From the NCBI GenBank assembly GCA_963718895.1, contig CAVRAG010000004.1:288001-352000 (forward strand): 64,000 bases of DNA. The letters are read 5' to 3'. Of the stretch, positions 22,843 to 30,391 are shown piece by piece (positions within the stretch are counted from its first letter, which is position 1; every line of letters begins with the position of its first letter). Position numbers and translations under genes: made by a program. Source of the DNA: an uncultured Nitrososphaerota archaeon. GTDB taxonomy: Archaea > Thermoproteota > Nitrososphaeria > Nitrososphaerales > Gagatemarchaeaceae. Under the pieces are notes generated by a model, which searched no databases, was not told the origin of the DNA, and saw only the letters and a program-made list of their open reading frames with translations.

Positions 22843-23915
22843 TTGATCGCGCCCAGCCCTCTTGCCAGAAGGAATACCGCTGCGTAAATAGGTATCTGGA
22901 CCGTCGAGTCGTTGTAGGGGCCGAACCTGACCCCGTTGAGGAAGAATTCAGGCGAGTAGTAGATTCGCACCGCGACGGTCTCGCCGCCAAGGACCACAGG
23001 GTCCTTCTGCGGGTCGAACTTCTCCAGGGATGCGATCCTCATCTTCAGGAGCCCCGAGCTGCCGTGGAGGGTCCCGGGCATCCGGAACACGCGGTGTATG
23101 TCGGTCGTCACAGATTCGTCTATGAGCGCAGCATTGGCTGCTATGATCTGGTTCGTGAGTTTCTGGGTCCTCTTTGGACTGGGGGTGCCCCCCTCGGTCG
23201 CCTTTGCCAGGAACAGGCTGGTCCTCCGGCTCCAGCCCAGCTCCACATGACTGGTCACCCTGTCCTGCACCTTGAGGTTGAGGCCGCTGCCCCTGATGTA
23301 GTTGGCTATCTCGGCCCTCGTCTTGGGGTCTGCGGTCTCGAACCTCTTGTCGCTCACGTGGGCATGGTACCCTCTGTTGCCCGAGAAGTACAGCTGGATG
23401 TCCTCGCGGTCTATCCCGAAGTCGTCCTGAAGGAAGTCCACGAGCCGCTTCACGTGCTCTTTGGTCGCATTGAGGCACTCCCGGCAGCTCCAATGCACCT
23501 GCTCGAGGGTCTGGCCCTGGCAGCCCGGGCACTTCGCAGGCTTCGTCCCCATGCCACCCTTGTGGCAGTTGTTGCAGAACCACCACGTGTGCCTGGTCTT
23601 GCAGGATGTGGGAATGGCATCGGCGTCTATGTCGAAGATCAGCTCGGCTCCCTTCCACCCCTTCTCGTCCATCTGAAGGGTCGGACTTTCGTAGACCGCG
23701 TTCGAGCAGTAGACGGAAGAGGGCGCCTGCTTCACCAGCTCCGCGAAGAGCTCCCCTCCGTTCTTGAACGAGAGGTGCCTTATCATGCCGCCTCCGAACG
23801 GGATGTAGCCGAACTCCCTTGAGGCCATCTCCGATGGGATCTCGACCAGGTCGTGGCGTTTGAAGTAGTGTCCACGATAGACCTTGCGAAGGAAGGAGAC
23901 GACCTTTTCATCCAT
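22839..23915 (-). CDS. priS: DNA primase small subunit
   Basis: REFG, ELIFDIDAD, YFSGNRGYH and IDESVTTDIHRVFRMPGTLH motifs; Zn-binding insert. Confidence 0.95.
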   Translation of the reverse strand: MDEKVVSFLRKVYRGHYFKRHDLVEIPSEMASREFGYIPFGGGMIRHLSFKNGGELFAELVKQAPSSVYCSNAVYESPTLQMDEKGWKGAELIFDIDADAIPTSCKTRHTWWFCNNCHKGGMGTKPAKCPGCQGQTLEQVHWSCRECLNATKEHVKRLVDFLQDDFGIDREDIQLYFSGNRGYHAHVSDKRFETADPKTRAEIANYIRGSGLNLKVQDRVTSHVELGWSRRTSLFLAKATEGGTPSPKRTQKLTNQIIAANAALIDESVTTDIHRVFRMPGTLHGSSGLLKMRIASLEKFDPQKDPVVLGGETVAVRIYYSPEFFLNGVRFGPYNDSTVQIPIYAAVFLLARGLGAIN

Positions 23916-24068: not shown

Positions 24069-25172
24069 ATGGAAGGTATCACGGACCGCCGCCTCTCTAA
24101 CCAGCGCATCACGCTCGACTCTACGGTGAAGTCTCCAGAAGATGTGCTGACCTCCCTGGGTGCCATCCAAGCACAGGATTACGCGGCCGCACTGTGGGCC
24201 ATAGGCCTGCGGTGCAAGGACTCCACGAGAGAAGATGTGGAGAAGGCCATAGCCGAGAAGAGGATTTCCCGCACGTGGCTGATGCGCGGCACTCTCCACT
24301 TCGCCTCGTCCCAGGACGTCCACTGGATGCTCAATCTCTTCGCTCCCCGACTGGTCAACACCGCCATAGCAAGGGACCGACACTTGGGCCTCAGCGACGA
24401 TGCCGTCACGAAGGCCGAGAGCCTGTTCGCGAAGGCGCTCAAAGGCAACGGCCGGCTCACAAGGAGCGGTATGTACGAGGTACTCGAGAAGGGCGGCCTC
24501 CAGATTCCCGGGAATCTCGGTTACCACATGCTTTACAGGGCCGCCTGGGATGGCGTGATATGTTTCGGACCGCACGATGGGAAGCAGCCGACGTTCGAGC
24601 TCTTGGACGAGCGAATCGCAAAGAGGAGGCCGCTTTCCAGTGAGCAGGCTCTGACCGAGCTGGTCACCCGGTACTTCACCAGCCATGGGCCGGCCACCAT
24701 CAAGGACTATGCGTGGTGGTCTGGGCTCAGAATTTCAGATGCCATGGTGGGCATAGAGGGGGCGTCCAGAAGGCTTGTTTCGGAGAAGATAGCTGGGAAG
24801 ACGTACTACAAGGCTAGGAAGTTGCCGAGGGTCGACAAAGGTGAGGGCGAGGTGCACCTCCTGCCGGCGTTCGATGAGTACCTCTTGGGCTACAGCGACA
24901 GATCAGCCATGCTCGGTAACGAGGACACACAGGAGATGCTGCGAAGTGGGAAGCTGTTCTTCACGCACAGCAACGGGATATTCCTTCCTGTGGTGGTGGC
25001 CGACGGGGAGGTTGTTGGTACGTGGAGAAGGAGGAACGAAAAGGACAGAGTGATTGTGATGGTAAAGCCGTTCGTGAAGCTGGATGAGAAGAGGGTGAAG
25101 GGAGTGAAGGAGGCCGCGGGAAGGTACGGGCACTTCCTCGAGACCCCGGTTGTCGTCATCTTTGACGACTAG
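24069..25172 (+). CDS. AlkZ/YcaQ-like (HTH_42) DNA glycosylase family
   Basis: AIQAQD, RTWLMRGTLH, YFTSHGPATIKDYAWWSGL and LLPAFDEYLLGY motifs. Confidence 0.88.
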   Translation: MEGITDRRLSNQRITLDSTVKSPEDVLTSLGAIQAQDYAAALWAIGLRCKDSTREDVEKAIAEKRISRTWLMRGTLHFASSQDVHWMLNLFAPRLVNTAIARDRHLGLSDDAVTKAESLFAKALKGNGRLTRSGMYEVLEKGGLQIPGNLGYHMLYRAAWDGVICFGPHDGKQPTFELLDERIAKRRPLSSEQALTELVTRYFTSHGPATIKDYAWWSGLRISDAMVGIEGASRRLVSEKIAGKTYYKARKLPRVDKGEGEVHLLPAFDEYLLGYSDRSAMLGNEDTQEMLRSGKLFFTHSNGIFLPVVVADGEVVGTWRRRNEKDRVIVMVKPFVKLDEKRVKGVKEAAGRYGHFLETPVVVIFDD

Positions 25173-25337
25173 CGCTGAAGGGGAGCGAACCGCATATTTT
25201 GGCAAGGACTTCAATGGAACGACTTCTCTATGGAAGAGAGAATCTCCTGCTGACCAGGTGCCGTGGTCGGTGACCCTGAGGAGACGCCAGTGCCATCCTT
25301 GACCGAGGCAAGCCAGGTGGGCAAAAGCGGATTTTCG

Positions 25338-25357
25338 CGCGGACATAACTATTAATC
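25338..25357 (+). promoter_or_regulatory. Conserved 20-bp accessory-gene element
   Basis: CGCGGACATAACTATTAATC, about 40 nt before ATG 25398. Confidence 0.7.
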
Positions 25358-25397
25358 AACGGTAAATCTTGAACGTCTTCGAGGCCTGATTCTCCGG

Positions 25398-26111
25398 ATG
25401 AGCGCTACCCCAGCCCGAAGCTACACTCGCATCGCAATCGCCGTCGTCGTAGCGGCCGTCGTGATCGGGGCAGGAATAGTCGCCTCCATGTATCTCGCAG
25501 CGACGGCGACATCGACAGGTACGGTGACCGTCGGGCCCAGCCTCGCCCGGCTCTGCAACGAGCAGGTGTGGAGCGCCGGCAGCTCCCAGAGCAATGGGGA
25601 GGTCCCGGTGCTCCTCATGCAGCCCCTGTCGACGGCCTACGTCTGCGTGACCTACCAGTCGGAGTGGCAGGGAAGCGCGAACCAATATCACAGTGAGTAC
25701 ACTAGTGGCGGGACGGATCAGCTCGGCCTCTACATGAGTCCGGGACACTGCATGATGGTCGCGGTAGGGTCCAACGGGGAATCGGTCAGCTGCGCCGCCG
25801 GGGCCCCTAACCCCTTCATGACCAGCGGCCCCTTCTCGTTCCAGCCGTCGGCTGCCACCGACTACGTGACTGTGGTGTTCACGGTCAGCTCGCTGGGCAA
25901 CTCGACGGGGTTCTACGACTATGCGCCGTCGAATTCCTGTGGCTCGATGCCGATGGCGGTGGGTTACACGGCCTCCCAGCTGAACGCATCGGACTTCGGT
26001 CCCAGGGTACAGCCTCAGGGGTGCATGCCGCTCGCGTTGGAGCCCTCGTCTGTGAGCGTCGGCGGGATGAGCGTGGCACACGTCGCGCTCGAAGGCGCCT
26101 TCGACCTATGA
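25398..26111 (+). CDS. Exported Cys-rich hypothetical protein (RSY-anchor type)
   Basis: PARSYTRIAIAVVVAAVVIGAGIVAS anchor; six Cys. Confidence 0.7.
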   Translation: MSATPARSYTRIAIAVVVAAVVIGAGIVASMYLAATATSTGTVTVGPSLARLCNEQVWSAGSSQSNGEVPVLLMQPLSTAYVCVTYQSEWQGSANQYHSEYTSGGTDQLGLYMSPGHCMMVAVGSNGESVSCAAGAPNPFMTSGPFSFQPSAATDYVTVVFTVSSLGNSTGFYDYAPSNSCGSMPMAVGYTASQLNASDFGPRVQPQGCMPLALEPSSVSVGGMSVAHVALEGAFDL

Positions 26112-26133
26112 GATGCAGGTCAAGGCCTCGCTT

Positions 26134-26395
26134 TATGTCGCTGGCCCTTCTGGCTCTGGGAGTCCTCACGACCGCCGCAGTGCTATTCAAAGTAAATTTC
26201 ACTCAGACCGGCTGCCAGCACGGTCCAGCCCCCAACCGCCTCAGGGCTGCGGCTACATCCCCCAACTGGTCCTGTTCGTCTGGGGCGAATACCTGGGGTT
26301 GGTCGACGACCTGTAGCTGATCTACCTCGGCTGCGCGGTCCTGGTCATCCGCTGGCTGGTGTACATTTGGCCGAGGGTCCTGAAGGAAAGCACCA
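26134..26395 (+). pseudogene. Possible degraded small membrane-protein gene
   Basis: Hydrophobic fragments in two frames (MSLALLALGVLTTAAVLF..., GCGYIPQLVLFVWG...DL*LIYLGCAVLVIRWLVYIW) with an internal stop. Confidence 0.3.
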
Positions 26396-26426
26396 AACTC
26401 CCATGAGGAGCGGCGCCTCCTGGCCG

Positions 26427-26448
26427 TTCGGACAAAGATGTATTAGTC
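26427..26448 (+). promoter_or_regulatory. Conserved element (spacer 2 nt longer)
   Basis: TTCGGACAAAGATGTATTAGTC, about 32 nt before TTG 26481. Confidence 0.6.
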
Positions 26449-26480
26449 GCAGAATTCGCCTTACCACAAGGCGCTTCGGT

Positions 26481-27530
26481 TTGAGCTCTCAGTCGGTTCG
26501 GAGCTATCGCATGATTGCCGCGGCGATAATCATAGCGGGTGTGCTGATTTCAGCGAGTCTGTTTGTCGCCATCGGAGGAGCGAAGACAACGACCGTCACA
26601 ACCACTTCGACCGCGACCTGCACCGACAGAGGCTCCAACGCCACGAACGTCTCCTCCACCGATTGCAACCTGGGGATCACCCTGGGCCTTGCGGTCACTC
26701 CAGAGGTCCTAGCGGGACGGAACGAGACCTTCCACCTCTCGGTGACCAACGACCTAGCAAGGAGTTCCACTGTCAACTACACCAGCCTCCCCACCCTCCC
26801 CAACGGCCCCGCGCTGTCTTCTGTCGCGGCGAGTGTCGACATGTTCCCTCCGCCCCCCATCTGCGGTTACCCATCATTAGGCAACTACGTACCTGCCTAC
26901 ATAGTGATTTACAACGGGGCGGGCGTCCCGGTCCAGCTGACCGACTCTGCCATAGCGACATTGAGCTGCCTGCACGAAACGGGTGATTCCCTCTCGTTCA
27001 ACGCCTTCCAGACCATCACGGAGGACCTCAGCATAGGGGGCGTGTGGACGAGCACGGACGTGGACCAGCCTTGGATCAACGCGACCTACAGCCAGTTCAG
27101 CCCCGGGAACTATTTCGTGGTAGCTTTCGACGCATGGGGCCAGCTCGCCGAGCTGAACTTCTCGGTCGGCCTCAGTCCCAACGCGGACTATCTGACGGCC
27201 GGGACCATCTGCACCGGGCCTGGAGGCTACGTGCCGTGCTTTGGTGGAAGCATGCCCAACAATACCCCATACTTCTTCAACTGCGCAGCCGCGGCAGCGA
27301 CGCCACAGGGTTGCACCCAGAAAGTGACCTACACTGGAGTGCCTCTGGTCAGCCAGGTGCCGAGCTATGTGATCAACATCAGGTTCACCAACCAGACGGC
27401 TCCGTGGTGGGCCAACTGCCTGTGGAGCGTGCAGGGGACAACAGCCGGGCAGGAGTATGGGTACTGCATGATGGTCAGCTCCACCTCGTTCGCATTGGGA
27501 GAGCCGACCCCGCCGCCGGTCGGTGGATGA
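26481..27530 (+). CDS. Exported Cys-rich protein (RSY-anchor type) sharing a domain with the 7526-8665 regulator
   Basis: RSYRMIAAAIIIAGVLISASLF anchor; FSPGNYFVVAFDAWG matches FSPGHYTMVAFDAFG. Confidence 0.75.
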   Translation: MSSQSVRSYRMIAAAIIIAGVLISASLFVAIGGAKTTTVTTTSTATCTDRGSNATNVSSTDCNLGITLGLAVTPEVLAGRNETFHLSVTNDLARSSTVNYTSLPTLPNGPALSSVAASVDMFPPPPICGYPSLGNYVPAYIVIYNGAGVPVQLTDSAIATLSCLHETGDSLSFNAFQTITEDLSIGGVWTSTDVDQPWINATYSQFSPGNYFVVAFDAWGQLAELNFSVGLSPNADYLTAGTICTGPGGYVPCFGGSMPNNTPYFFNCAAAAATPQGCTQKVTYTGVPLVSQVPSYVINIRFTNQTAPWWANCLWSVQGTTAGQEYGYCMMVSSTSFALGEPTPPPVGG

Positions 27531-27554
27531 CTCAGCACTGGCGCGCTGTTTACC

Positions 27555-27579
27555 TTGCCATGGCAACCGCTGTTAAATA
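27555..27579 (+). promoter_or_regulatory. TTGCCATGGCAA palindrome followed by TATA-like TTAAATA
   Basis: 12-bp palindrome at 27555-27566 and TTAAATA at 27573-27579. Confidence 0.45.
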
Positions 27580-27610
27580 TCGATCCGCCCTGTTCTTGTG
27601 CTAAAAACAA

Positions 27611-27691
27611 CGAACGACCGACGATTCGGACCCCGAAAGGGAACGGCATGAGAAGCTTGGCTTCTCAGGTCGTGCCGCACAGGATGCGGCA
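27611..27691 (+). ncRNA. Candidate structured RNA / leader upstream of the LAGLIDADG gene
   Basis: CCC-GAAA-GGG, TGAGAAGC-TTG-GCTTCTCA and TGCCGCA-CAGGA-TGCGGCA hairpins; long-range ACGACC/GGTCGT pairing. Confidence 0.35.
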
Positions 27692-27791
27692 AACTGGCGA
27701 CGTGCAACGGCCCCATCTTCGGCCATAAATCGCCTCAGAAGTCATTCGATTTCTTTCAACTGAACGGGTAGCAATCTGCAAATCCTCTATC

Positions 27792-27844
27792 GATGTTGCC
27801 AAACTCAGTGGCAATGTTGCCACCATGTTGCCATTGGCAACATC
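27792..27844. repeat. Nested inverted/direct repeat array of TGTTGCCA boxes
   Basis: GATGTTGCCAA...TTGGCAACATC outer IR, GTGGCAA-TG-TTGCCAC and ATGTTGCCA-T-TGGCAACAT. Confidence 0.75.
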
Positions 27845-27902
27845 TAGAATCCTGGGATAGCATGCCCTGTGGGGCTTTTCTAGGCTTCTGCACTCCTTTG
27901 CG

Positions 27903-29621
27903 ATGGACGAAGAGAACTCTGTCCAGAAAGAGACTCCGAAGACGAGAATAGGAGACTCCAAGACGGTTTCGTCCCCGGATGTCAAGCAGGAACCTGCCTT
28001 TTCTGAGGTTCCAAGCGACGCCGGGTCTCAGGCGGAAGGGACGGAAGGTCAGGTGAGCATCGAACGGACGGATGAGGCGACCCAGACGACGCTGGCAAGG
28101 TTCAACGAGGTTCAGGGTTCAGCAAAACCAGCAAGCGCGCCGCCGAGCGAGAGGGAACAGTTCGAATCAAATCCGACTGTGCTCGAAACAAGAGTCTATG
28201 GTCACACGTACACGAAGAAGAATGGGGAGCTTGGCTCGAACCTGATGTTCAGACTGCCTTGGCGGAAGCTCAGAAGCCCCGAGGGAGCGAGGCTGGAGGC
28301 CGAGAAGCTCTACCGAGTATCCGGGAAGGTCGATGGAGACTTCGAGTTCGAAAGCTACGTCCAAACGACCGGATTCCGGTCACTGATTGTCTACGTGCCC
28401 GTGAAGTACGCCGATAGGGTAAGACCCTCGGAGGTTCACAAGCTTTCCATCCTCGGAGTCGCCTTGGTAGAGACGAAGAAGCCGGTTGGCGAGCTCGTGA
28501 ATGGGATTCGCATCACGTCTTGGAGGAGGTTCGCCAGGTCGAAGTATGTGGACGAGGTTAACGGAGAGGAATTTGGCGATGGGCCGCCGAGGCAGCTAAG
28601 TGAAATCGAGAGGTCATGGCTCGCTGGGGTCATTGATGGAGAGGGCTCGATCTTCATTACGAAGTTGAACAGAGGGCTGGCTGCCCAGAGAAGACGCGGC
28701 TTCGCCTATGCTCCTGCCATCAATCTCAGCAGCTCCAACGAGGAGTTTGCGAGAAAGGTGAGGGACGTGATTGGAAGGGGATCGGTGAATTTCCAAGAGG
28801 AGCGGCGGTATGAGTGGAAGGATAGATGGTGCTACCGAGGCGCTGCCATGGTCCTTCGGGGGCTGTTGCCACAGCTAGTGACTCACCTGCTCATCAAGAG
28901 GGAGGCTGCAGAGAGTATGCTGGAGTACCTTGCATTCGTCGATGCACACCCAATCAACGGTCTCATGGACATTCCAGCAGGCTACTATGAGAAGGTAGAT
29001 TCGCTGTACTTGGCGCTCAAGAAGAAGAACGAGAAAGGAAAGGACCTCTCGGATGAAGAACTGGCTACTCTGCTCGCGTTGCCGAAAGGGTTGAAGAGAA
29101 AGGGGCGGGGTTCCAGGGCGACCGAATGCCGGACTCTCACAGAAGAAGAGATTGTTTGGCTGGCAGGTGTCATAGATGGAGAAGGGGCGATATTTCTCTC
29201 CAAGGTCGTTCATCCTGCGTACAGCAGAGGATACTTCTACAGGCCGCAGCTCAGTGTGACCAACTCCAACCGGCAGTTCTGCGTGAAGGTGATGGAGATT
29301 ATAGGGGAAGGGACAGTGAATCTAGCTCGTAGAGGGGACGCGGTGACCAGGACGAGATGGGAGTATCAGGCGAACTCTGGCGTCTTACGTGCGATTCTGC
29401 CCCAGGTTATGCCCTACTTGATTATCAAACGTGGGGTTGCCGGTCACGTCCTCGAGTACCTTCGATTTGTAAGGGAGAGCTACGCGCCCAGCAGAAGTGC
29501 CCAGCCCGGCTGGTATTATGAGAAGTTGGATACGCTTTACGGAATGATAAAGAGGCTGAACGAGAAGGGGAAGAAACCCAGCCCGTCGGCGGATGGTGCG
29601 GATACGCTAAATATTAGATAA
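27903..29621 (+). CDS. Free-standing tandem LAGLIDADG endonuclease-like protein with N-terminal extra domain
   Basis: Two approx. 150-aa repeats, each WLAGVIDGEG...L.IKR...YYEK.D.LY...NEKGK. No intein splicing motifs. Confidence 0.85.
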   Translation: MDEENSVQKETPKTRIGDSKTVSSPDVKQEPAFSEVPSDAGSQAEGTEGQVSIERTDEATQTTLARFNEVQGSAKPASAPPSEREQFESNPTVLETRVYGHTYTKKNGELGSNLMFRLPWRKLRSPEGARLEAEKLYRVSGKVDGDFEFESYVQTTGFRSLIVYVPVKYADRVRPSEVHKLSILGVALVETKKPVGELVNGIRITSWRRFARSKYVDEVNGEEFGDGPPRQLSEIERSWLAGVIDGEGSIFITKLNRGLAAQRRRGFAYAPAINLSSSNEEFARKVRDVIGRGSVNFQEERRYEWKDRWCYRGAAMVLRGLLPQLVTHLLIKREAAESMLEYLAFVDAHPINGLMDIPAGYYEKVDSLYLALKKKNEKGKDLSDEELATLLALPKGLKRKGRGSRATECRTLTEEEIVWLAGVIDGEGAIFLSKVVHPAYSRGYFYRPQLSVTNSNRQFCVKVMEIIGEGTVNLARRGDAVTRTRWEYQANSGVLRAILPQVMPYLIIKRGVAGHVLEYLRFVRESYAPSRSAQPGWYYEKLDTLYGMIKRLNEKGKKPSPSADGADTLNIR

Positions 29622-29635
29622 GATGATGGAGAATA

Positions 29636-30391
29636 TTACGACTCCTGGATGCGCGGCGCCAAAAAATAGGAAATTATTGCACCTTGTTCGTTGAGCTTGA
29701 AGGTCAGCTTCGCAGGCTTCTTGCTCGAGAACTGGAGCAGCACGGTCTCGGCGGTGCTGCCTAGTGCCCGCGAAATACTCATGAAATAGTCAATGTTGTA
29801 GCTCGCCTTGGCCTCCGCCTTCACGTCCATCTCCAATACGTCTGCCCCGTTCTTGTCCAGCTGGATCGTGGCCGCCCCGATGTCTGACTTGCCGCCGAAC
29901 GAGACGCCCTCCTTCAGCGCGCTGATCGCGACCTGGTCTGCGACCACGGAGATGTCGCCCAAGACCTTCTCGAAGACGCTCTTGCTCATGGAGATGCTGG
30001 CGTCGAAGTCGAGCTTCGGGAGAGGCGCGGTCCCGGACGTGCTCTCGATTAGGTGGATCCTGAACTCCCTCTTGTAGCCGTTCATCAGCCTCAGGAGGAG
30101 CGCGTCCTCTTCGGTGGACGTCAGCTCGATGCTGTCCTTCGAGTCGGTCCTCCCGATCAGCTTCACAAAGTCCTCCACGCGGATGCTGAACTTGAACGGC
30201 TTGTCGCACTCGTACTTCTCGAACGCGACCGCTGGCCAGGCCAAGTCGACCAGAGCTATGTGGGAAGGGTCCATCGCCCTGAAGATGAGCGCCTCGCTGC
30301 TCGCCTCGAAGGTAGCCTCCTCCACGAGGGTCTTGATTGCAGAAGCGACGGCCTTCCATTCGACAGCGCTTGAGGTCTTTGTAAACAGCAA
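29636..30391 (-). CDS. pcn: PCNA sliding clamp
   Basis: LVEEATF, RAMDPSHIALVDL, FEKYEC and YFLAPRI motifs. Confidence 0.95.
   Translation of the reverse strand: MLFTKTSSAVEWKAVASAIKTLVEEATFEASSEALIFRAMDPSHIALVDLAWPAVAFEKYECDKPFKFSIRVEDFVKLIGRTDSKDSIELTSTEEDALLLRLMNGYKREFRIHLIESTSGTAPLPKLDFDASISMSKSVFEKVLGDISVVADQVAISALKEGVSFGGKSDIGAATIQLDKNGADVLEMDVKAEAKASYNIDYFMSISRALGSTAETVLLQFSSKKPAKLTFKLNEQGAIISYFLAPRIQES

Follow-up and report, generated by a model that had tools for sequence, protein, structure and literature searches.

A free-standing LAGLIDADG endonuclease gene and a 5' cassette with a likely structured leader shared among nuclease genes of an archaeal genus

Organization of the locus

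We analyzed a stretch of 64,000 nucleotides (nt) from an uncultured Nitrososphaerota archaeon of the Gagatemarchaeaceae (contig CAVRAG010000004.1, positions 288,001 to 352,000), hereafter called the window. The open reading frame (ORF) under study, at 27903-29621 on the plus strand, begins with an ATG at 27903 and encodes a putative LAGLIDADG endonuclease of 572 amino acids (aa). A TATA-like TTAAATA (27573-27579) lies 330 nt before this ATG, and between the two there are a cluster of predicted hairpins and a block of repeats (Table 1). The genome of the window is designated G000, and the related genomes are designated G001, G002 and so on. An earlier sequence-only reading of the locus had proposed a selfish or regulatory unit in which a non-coding RNA is paired with the LAGLIDADG protein, analogous in layout to HEARO-type loci. 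The TATA-like element, the hairpins it listed (27618-27691), the repeat block at 27792-27844 and the nuclease ORF were all found again in our analysis, and the conserved upstream element proved to be linked to nuclease genes in all eight copies, but a HEARO-type mechanism was not supported, as discussed below.

Table 1. Features of the endonuclease locus and its conserved flanks (positions in the window)
Feature	Position	Strand	Remarks
PriS (primase small subunit)	22845..23915	-	Left conserved flank of the insertion hot spot; tblastn with the L035 PriS ORF gives 92% identity at G000:C4:310845-311915
Palindrome TTGCCATGGCAA, double GTTGCCA-type site	27555..27566	.	Just upstream of the TATA box; window copy only; once in the 3.1-Mb genome
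GTTAAATA, TATA-box-like promoter element	27572..27579	+	Left edge of the cassette; invariant in 7/7 aligned copies
Conserved structured core of the leader	27596..27710	+	115 nt, three hairpins, covariance model R1
Hairpin 1, CCC-GNRA-GGG, with the loop GAAA in the window copy	27632-27641	+	Kept in 8/8 copies
Hairpin 2, 13 base pairs with a 1x1 internal loop	27643-27673	+	Kept in 8/8 copies
Hairpin 3, GCCGnn/nnCGGC	27674-27690	+	Kept in 8/8 copies
Degenerate TGGCAACRTG box	27695-27704	+	Within the core, after hairpin 3
Semi-conserved leader spacer	27711..27791	+	Mean pairwise identity 0.62-0.76; no T run of five or longer
Array of (A)TGTTGCCA sites, three direct and one inverted	27792..27844	.	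Probably an operator recognized by a DNA-binding protein
Shared N-terminal ~48 codons, acidic, probably disordered	27903..28047	+	Right end of the shared cassette; aligned across 9 genes
Small beta-barrel domain	28176..28517	+	No Pfam family; AlphaFold model
Two tandem LAGLIDADG domains	28605..29582	+	Motifs LAGVIDGEGS and LAGVIDGEGA; Pfam, PDB sequence search
PCNA	29636..30391	-	Right conserved flank, convergent with the endonuclease gene; Pfam PCNA_N and PCNA_C

The endonuclease protein and its insertion site

The 572-aa protein contains LAGVIDGEGS at residues 240-249 and LAGVIDGEGA at residues 420-429. Both motifs read GEG, each closes with an acidic residue, and the Glu of GEG in the second motif is aligned with the catalytic Asp of GDG in I-MsoI. 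Pfam family PF00961 (LAGLIDADG_1) matches the first domain (residues 240-304) with 32 bits, above the cut-off of 23.1, and in tblastn the nuclease half with LAGVIDGEGS and the second half match each other. A PDB sequence search with residues ~410-540 retrieved I-MsoI (3fd2) with an E value of 5.5e-13, followed by I-CvuI and I-CreI. By its motifs, acidic residues and Pfam score, the protein is assigned as a new member of the LAGLIDADG family; it appears to be a tandem single-chain enzyme whose catalytic motifs look intact, and it would be expected to cut DNA.

Between the acidic N-terminus and the nuclease domains lies the small beta-barrel (~residues 92-205), for which AlphaFold gave a model of eight strands with a mean predicted local distance difference test score of 72.7. 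The structures closest to it are PhS018 (2glw; Z 7.6 over 82 aligned residues) and PG0164 (2d9r; Z 7.0), both with middling scores, and Foldseek returned nothing for the domain at E <= 0.001. The barrel is rare, with merely 19 representatives in 1.84 billion proteins; among 12 scanned proteins that contain it, LAGLIDADG_3 scored above the cut-off in two and weakly in a third. It is probably a DNA-binding module.

Strong homologues of the protein are present in eight of 41 genomes (G000 included), all of one genus, and in all seven related loci PCNA lies directly downstream in the convergent orientation. In the window, PriS is found ~4 kb upstream of the endonuclease gene, and the insertion falls between the stop codon of PCNA and the promoter of PriS. 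We then compared this site in the 15 genus genomes with a PCNA match. Eight of them are occupied, one (G009) is rearranged and six are empty (G011, G012, G018, G022, G017 and G010), with PriS and PCNA directly adjacent and only ~50 nt between the PriS start and the PCNA stop codon (~48 nt in the G011 allele). The occupied alleles have a common left junction after AATTG[CT]T[CT], and on the right the inserts, of 1.9, 2.15 and 5.7 kb, reach directly to the PCNA stop codon. Decayed copies of the gene were also found: that of G013 is in pieces, that of G002 is frameshifted, and those of G020 and G021 are without the N-terminal part. Moreover, a second polymorphic insertion was found for the G011b gene, which lies between the diphthamide synthase and SRP54 genes; these two are adjacent in G000.

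Since the ORF occupies a precise intergenic site beside an essential gene, varies in presence and absence among close relatives, and decays, we regard it on this comparative evidence as a free-standing single-chain (tandem) LAGLIDADG homing-endonuclease gene that invaded the PCNA-PriS spacer. It interrupts no host gene and is neither an intron nor an intein, as the sequence-only reading had held; it looks selfish. Free-standing homing endonucleases are well studied in phages and far less described for archaeal chromosomes, and this one site beside an essential replication gene offers a natural series of empty, occupied, nuclease-swapped and decayed alleles.

Several further observations concern the same neighbourhood. 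An AlkZ-like DNA glycosylase gene (Pfam E 1.7e-63) and two genes for hypothetical secreted or membrane-anchored proteins occupy 24069-27530 of the window, between PriS and the endonuclease cassette; compared with the empty alleles, where PriS adjoins PCNA, the hot spot of G000 has thus acquired about 3.5 kb of additional cargo. ORFs with a CxxC...QKYCxxC zinc-ribbon N-terminus lie near PCNA in G022 (L056, 3014-3559) and G009 (L058, 77-709), the former on the opposite side of PCNA, and this N-terminus resembles that of the HNH/EndoVII-like variant described below. Nuclease genes may generally use the surroundings of PCNA as a landing site. In G010, the PCNA match is split into residues 1-89 and 89-250 in different frames (L059/L061, G010:C2:372493-373243), a split due either to a frameshift or to an error in the assembly. 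The last six PCNA codons (window 29636-29660; L046, L047, L035) show three to four synonymous differences between the empty G011 allele and two occupied alleles, affecting Pro and Arg in both, Ile in L035 and Glu in G001, and the preceding 14 codons show from one (L035) to four (G001). This cluster may mark the target site or the edge of co-conversion, but it is only a lead, with too few alleles to count.

A 5' cassette shared by different nuclease genes

In three orthologous loci, the upstream conservation starts exactly at GTTAAATA, as seen by blastn and in the alignment. A sliding identity profile of eight copies gave the same picture: homology begins at ~27560-27570 and ends near 28047. 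The mean identity peaks at 0.83-0.84 over 27629-27675, so that the RNA core is the best-conserved part. From there to the end of the repeat block it remains at 0.55-0.76, and the first ~48 codons have values of 0.56-0.78. Judged from this alignment, the ~480 nt at 27565-28047 are a portable shared 5' cassette, which includes the promoter, the leader, the GTTGCCA array and the first ~45 codons.

We obtained eight distinct copies of the RNA core, all from one genus. In all of them, an ORF with the shared ~45-residue N-terminus (MD[EQ][ED]..VQ..[TA]PK...G.S...) follows on the same strand 272-355 nt downstream, and the bodies of these ORFs belong to different types. Four are I-MsoI-like tandem LAGLIDADG proteins at the PCNA site (G000, G001, G002 and G007). 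Two others, G007b and G002b, represent a second tandem LAGLIDADG type with helix-turn-helix domains: G007b has weak Pfam matches to HTH_20 and LAGLIDADG_3 and matches PHROG 5046 at E 5e-26, while G002b is cut by the contig end, gives no match in Pfam and was likened to G007b by eye. A metagenome copy at the PriS-PCNA site has the same tail and barrel joined to a cysteine-rich C-terminus, which matches only PHROG 'endonuclease VII' families (E ~1e-3) and in which an HNH-like DH..N...CxxC pattern can be seen by eye. For the G011b body, Pfam and PHROGs gave nothing, and its protein atlas score of 0.81 is at chance level.

The two copies in G007 share 0.91 identity in the leader and merely 0.66 in the N-terminal coding part, and their N-terminal codons group with different genomes. 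Because they are much closer in the leader than in these codons, the leader appears to have been exchanged between loci. Among nine genes, the N-terminal coding part shows indels in multiples of three, a ratio of nonsynonymous to synonymous substitution (dN/dS) of ~0.3-0.9 and nucleotide identity of 0.61-0.95; from the indels in threes and the dN/dS values, it is translated and weakly constrained.

A block of promoter, structured leader and operator sites thus travels with the nuclease genes as a unit. In the papers that we found, which form a thin basis, no cassette shared by nuclease genes of different folds is described. A literature search on archaeal LAGLIDADG genes of the free-standing kind found nothing on this subject, and the main text of the paper on the genomes of the Gagatemarchaeaceae (PMC10640624) uses none of the terms endonuclease, LAGLIDADG, mobile, intron, PCNA or non-coding.

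An ORF of 1073 aa elsewhere in G000 (C8:1067704-1070925) has 27% identity over 446 residues with the G011b body; it is without the RNA core, giving no match to R1.

Structure and conservation of the leader

The 331-nt leader folds with -120 kcal/mol, compared with -96.3 +/- 5.2 for shuffled sequences (z -4.5), and none of 100 shuffles was as good. However, the opposite strand also folds well (z -3.9), and for this reason the z-score alone does not give the strand. The three hairpins of the core include the arms TGAGAAGC/GCTTCTCA at 27649-27656 and 27660-27667 in hairpin 2, and TGCCGCA/TGCGGCA at 27673-27679 and 27685-27691 around hairpin 3. As to the helix cluster that the sequence-only reading had described, these three hairpins are kept in all copies, but its CCGA-CGAT-TCGG hairpin (27618-27629) is specific to the window copy and not conserved.

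We searched with the covariance model of the core, R1, which scores 111 bits in the window and 83-134 bits in the seven other distinct copies. Full-length matches with E values of 1e-18 to 1e-32 were found in four related genomes, and in total the 97 family genomes contain seven full-length matches in five genomes, all of one genus; the search was also repeated with laxer filters on 23 genomes. Neither the 92 other family genomes nor 150 further genomes of the class gave a core. When metagenome and genome collections were scanned with a pattern, five and six loci, respectively, were obtained, from the same genus only and with one new sequence; the pattern is strict, and diverged cores could escape it. 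Among viral contigs, there were no matches to the RNA pattern and no relatives of the protein.

In the R1-based alignment of eight copies, 94.6% of helix cells are paired, compared with 24-45% in slid controls. Compensatory change from A-U to G-C is found in two pairs, in hairpins 2 and 3. Hairpin 1 has a variable loop (GAAA, CAAA, GCAA, GCGA) on a constant stem. In the window, hairpin 3 keeps six pairs by a register shift of one column, which the count table scores as 'not paired'. Moreover, a G-U pair in the outer helix, present in seven of the eight copies, fits the plus strand only. The comparison of upstream regions among homologues that had been suggested as a check found conserved structure in all eight copies, with only two compensatory pairs, and 12 of the 21 helix pairs never vary. 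Taken from these alignments, the core of the leader is likely a real RNA structure.

Rfam 15 gave nothing at gathering score in the 64-kb window, so the family match looked for there was not obtained, and at E <= 10 the only match within 27400-28000 was a 13.7-bit noise hit to Hrs1. There is no tRNA in the window. RNAalifold proposed a closing helix of 27596-27601 with ~27780-27785, which has weak support and is broken in the window copy.

Two further candidates were rejected. One is a short reading frame of 57 aa within the leader, at 27555-27728, with a TTG start and with an ATG at 27648; it shows single-base indels between copies, and the ATG is CTG in two of them. The sequence-only reading had also noted an alternative CGGCAT/GTGCCG pairing. 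In the second candidate, the 3' arm of hairpin 3 would pair instead with a GCCGAT further downstream, as in a switch, and this pairing is less well kept than the local hairpin.

The promoter and the GTTGCCA array

TTAAATA is among the most enriched 7-mers before ATG starts of G000. It occurs 29 times within 80 nt of the 1,735 long-ORF starts, and 15 of the 29 occurrences lie at -40 to -31. By this enrichment and position, it is the usual TATA box of this genome.

The repeat block contains a perfect 11-nt inverted repeat, GATGTTGCCAA/TTGGCAACATC (27792-27802 and 27834-27844), with three ATGTTGCCA inside. The repeats of the 'nested repeat hairpin' of the sequence-only reading are thus present, but they form an array of GTTGCCA sites that points to a DNA operator. 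The number and orientation of the (A)TGTTGCCA units differ between copies, and in most copies an inverted unit, TGGCAACRTG, is also found inside the leader. Three further arrays occur in G000, each just upstream of GTTAAATAC (C5:9967-10072, C5:10583-10671 and C8:1210462-1210550); in fact, arrays of at least three GTTGCCA sites are found in this genome only at C4:315795, C5:9967-10671 and C8:1210462. Arrays of at least three sites, with a spacing of 11 nt or 21-22 nt, are present in 11 of 23 genus genomes, while the reversed control pattern gave 0-1, and in these 11 genomes they adjoin other GTTAAATA promoters. Because the same array adjoins other promoters in the genus, we interpret it as a DNA operator and not an RNA hairpin, probably bound by a DNA-binding protein of the genus. 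The arrays point to a genus-specific regulator or a family of non-coding elements.

In viral contigs, 15 ATGTTGCCA arrays were found and judged unrelated: they share no other sequence with the G000 element, and many of their periods are multiples of three.

Outside the window, G000 holds a conserved non-coding element of ~970 nt (C5:9982-10949; also C8:1210330-1210560). Its order is a GGGTTGCCAA array with 21-22-nt spacing, GTTAAATAC, five plus three hairpin repeats in tandem (AATGCnCAAGGGTTGnGCATT followed by TAGTCGCAACCCTTGCGAC), a GATGTTGCCAA array, another GTTAAATAC, ~225 nt and a T10 run. Loci with 70-88% identity to it are present in G021, in G003 and, in several copies, in G001; it could be a non-coding RNA gene family or a small mobile element. 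G000 also has two paralogous ORFs of 584 aa on the minus strand (C8:1203646-1205397 and 1207322-1209073), which by eye are like the reverse-transcriptase/maturase ORFs of group II introns. About 600 nt of structured-looking sequence lie upstream of one of them, behind a promoter with a GTTGCCA array.

Proposed control of the endonuclease gene and alternative explanations

We lean, with confidence slightly above even, towards a reading in which the long structured leader and the operator array would control the selfish nuclease gene in cis, by analogy with the endonuclease genes of phage T4. Transcription would start about 25 nt past the TATA box, and one transcript would cover the leader and continue into the ORF. 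Folding of the leader and binding of a protein to the array would then hold a potentially genome-cutting enzyme scarce or conditional, and recombination would move the cassette between nuclease genes. One long transcript is favoured because TTAAATA is the usual TATA box of the genome, because no run of at least five T lies between the core and the ATG, and because the core is never found without the ORF. It is also favoured because the proximal TATA-like TTTTCTA (TTTTCTAG, 28 nt before the ATG) is not conserved, and because the b-type copies have only ~21 nt from the array to the ATG, with no room for a second TATA box. It is from these features that we infer the transcript and the regulatory role of the leader. 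If the leader does regulate expression, it would be among the few cis-regulatory RNAs proposed in Nitrososphaeria and would show how a genome-cutting enzyme is tamed by the host or by the element itself.

However, several observations weigh against this interpretation. Four orthologous genes at the same site (G005, G013, G020 and G021) are without the RNA core. G005 keeps only the last ~45 nt of the leader, with a TATA-like TTTTCTAT ~28 nt before the ATG, an arrangement that fits a proximal promoter and a leaderless messenger RNA (mRNA). The covariation is thin, with two compensatory pairs among eight sequences of close kin, and shuffles reach the score in 32 of 500 trials, so the conservation could also be that of palindromic DNA. 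In addition, the start codon is not clearly sequestered: the pairing probability of the AUG is 0.42-0.79 across the eight copies, and the sole pairing in the start region common to them is an invariant stem of five base pairs, UGGAC/GUCCA.

The main rival of cis control by a long leader, in our estimate rather unlikely, divides the locus into two units. The TTAAATA promoter would produce a separate small RNA of ~110-190 nt, which would act in trans or would restrain the nuclease or its mRNA in the manner of an antitoxin, and the endonuclease mRNA would be leaderless, made from a weak proximal promoter under the GTTGCCA array. The closing helix of RNAalifold would make 27596-27785 a self-contained domain in this case, but it is weak and is broken in the window copy. 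The position of TTTTCTAG before the ATG agrees with the usual distance for leaderless genes here, G005 retains the proximal part without the core, and the arrays at other places in the genome precede a TATA box and are not within a transcript; but the proximal element is not conserved and has no room in the b-type copies, the core is not followed by a terminator-like T run, and in none of the eight copies does it stand without a downstream ORF. The core may instead matter only as DNA, as palindromic binding sites for regulators or recombination proteins, which we consider distinctly improbable. The two strands fold about equally well (z -4.5 and -3.9), the 12 invariant helix pairs of 21 are uninformative for RNA, and the TGGCAACRTG box in the leader is the inverse of the downstream repeat unit. 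Against this, the G-U of the outer helix in seven of eight copies is an A-C mismatch on the other strand, for which DNA offers no reason to persist, and the loops vary while the stems hold, through compensatory A-U to G-C changes and through the register shift that preserves pairing in hairpin 3 of the window. A more active role of the RNA is also conceivable, though we hold it to be unlikely: the cassette would be a portable module of control and mobility, exchanged by recombination among archaeal homing nucleases of unrelated folds, with the RNA as an active partner. One could think of a sensor RNA, or of one that resembles an antitoxin, by which cutting would be licensed only with an empty allele or in a particular cell state.

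That the RNA binds the LAGLIDADG protein and guides or licenses cleavage, in the manner of HEARO/IscB or of a maturase, seems highly improbable to us. A structured RNA does lie immediately 5' of the nuclease ORF on the same strand in all eight copies, and some intron-encoded LAGLIDADG proteins bind RNA as maturases. But LAGLIDADG enzymes read DNA with the protein, and Rfam finds neither HEARO, an intron nor any other family. The same RNA also stands before unrelated nuclease bodies, whose only common part, the acidic N-terminal peptide, is an unlikely RNA binder. Four orthologues do without the RNA, and the alignment shows no variable guide-like segment; the HEARO analogy of the sequence-only reading is therefore not retained as a mechanism. 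Least probable of all, we think, is a degenerate intron (group I, group II or archaeal bulge-helix-bulge) without host gene, whose remnant would be the leader. Genes of the I-CreI/I-MsoI type are normally found in group I introns, and loops of the GNRA type are present here. However, an intron match in Rfam is absent even at E <= 10, the insertion is intergenic, the empty alleles contain no interrupted gene, and the element opens with a promoter.

Comparison with known systems

In phage T4, operators that overlie the promoters of homing-endonuclease genes control their expression, as do inhibitory RNA hairpins that form on transcripts begun at distal promoters (PMC2988022). The free-standing seg and mob genes of T4 ('intronless homing') resemble the present gene in lying between conserved essential genes, outside any intron or intein, and in their presence/absence polymorphism at a precise spot. 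The combination of operator sites with RNA structure on distal-promoter transcripts, as described for T4 in PMC2988022, would be a further likeness of the regulation proposed here. The differences are clear as well: the host here is an archaeal chromosome and not a phage, the enzyme is of the LAGLIDADG type whereas the T4 genes are GIY-YIG or HNH, the leader is ~300 nt long, conserved and part of a cassette common to several nuclease types, and there is no Shine-Dalgarno sequence to sequester.

At the protein level, the best sequence matches for each nuclease half are I-MsoI, I-CvuI and I-CreI (3fd2, 5a74 and 1bp7), with the motif and its terminal acidic residue aligned, and these matches are remote, at 27-52 bits. 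The present protein differs from them as a tandem single chain that is free-standing and carries an extra beta-barrel and an acidic tail. The three known enzymes are single-domain homodimers encoded in organellar group I introns.

With HEARO/IscB omega-RNA, the locus shares a structured RNA directly upstream of a nuclease ORF on the same strand in the context of a selfish element. Unlike in those systems, Pfam finds LAGLIDADG families only and not the IscB type (HNH with RuvC), Rfam gives nothing for the RNA, orthologues can dispense with it, and a guide segment could not be discerned.

In modular homing endonucleases (the NUMOD concept), nuclease domains are shuffled onto common DNA-binding modules. 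A comparable arrangement is found here, where the tail and barrel that accompany a tandem LAGLIDADG region are found, at this very PriS-PCNA site, also with a weak HNH/EndoVII-like domain. In contrast to NUMOD, however, the unit shared here also holds the promoter, the structured leader and the operator array.

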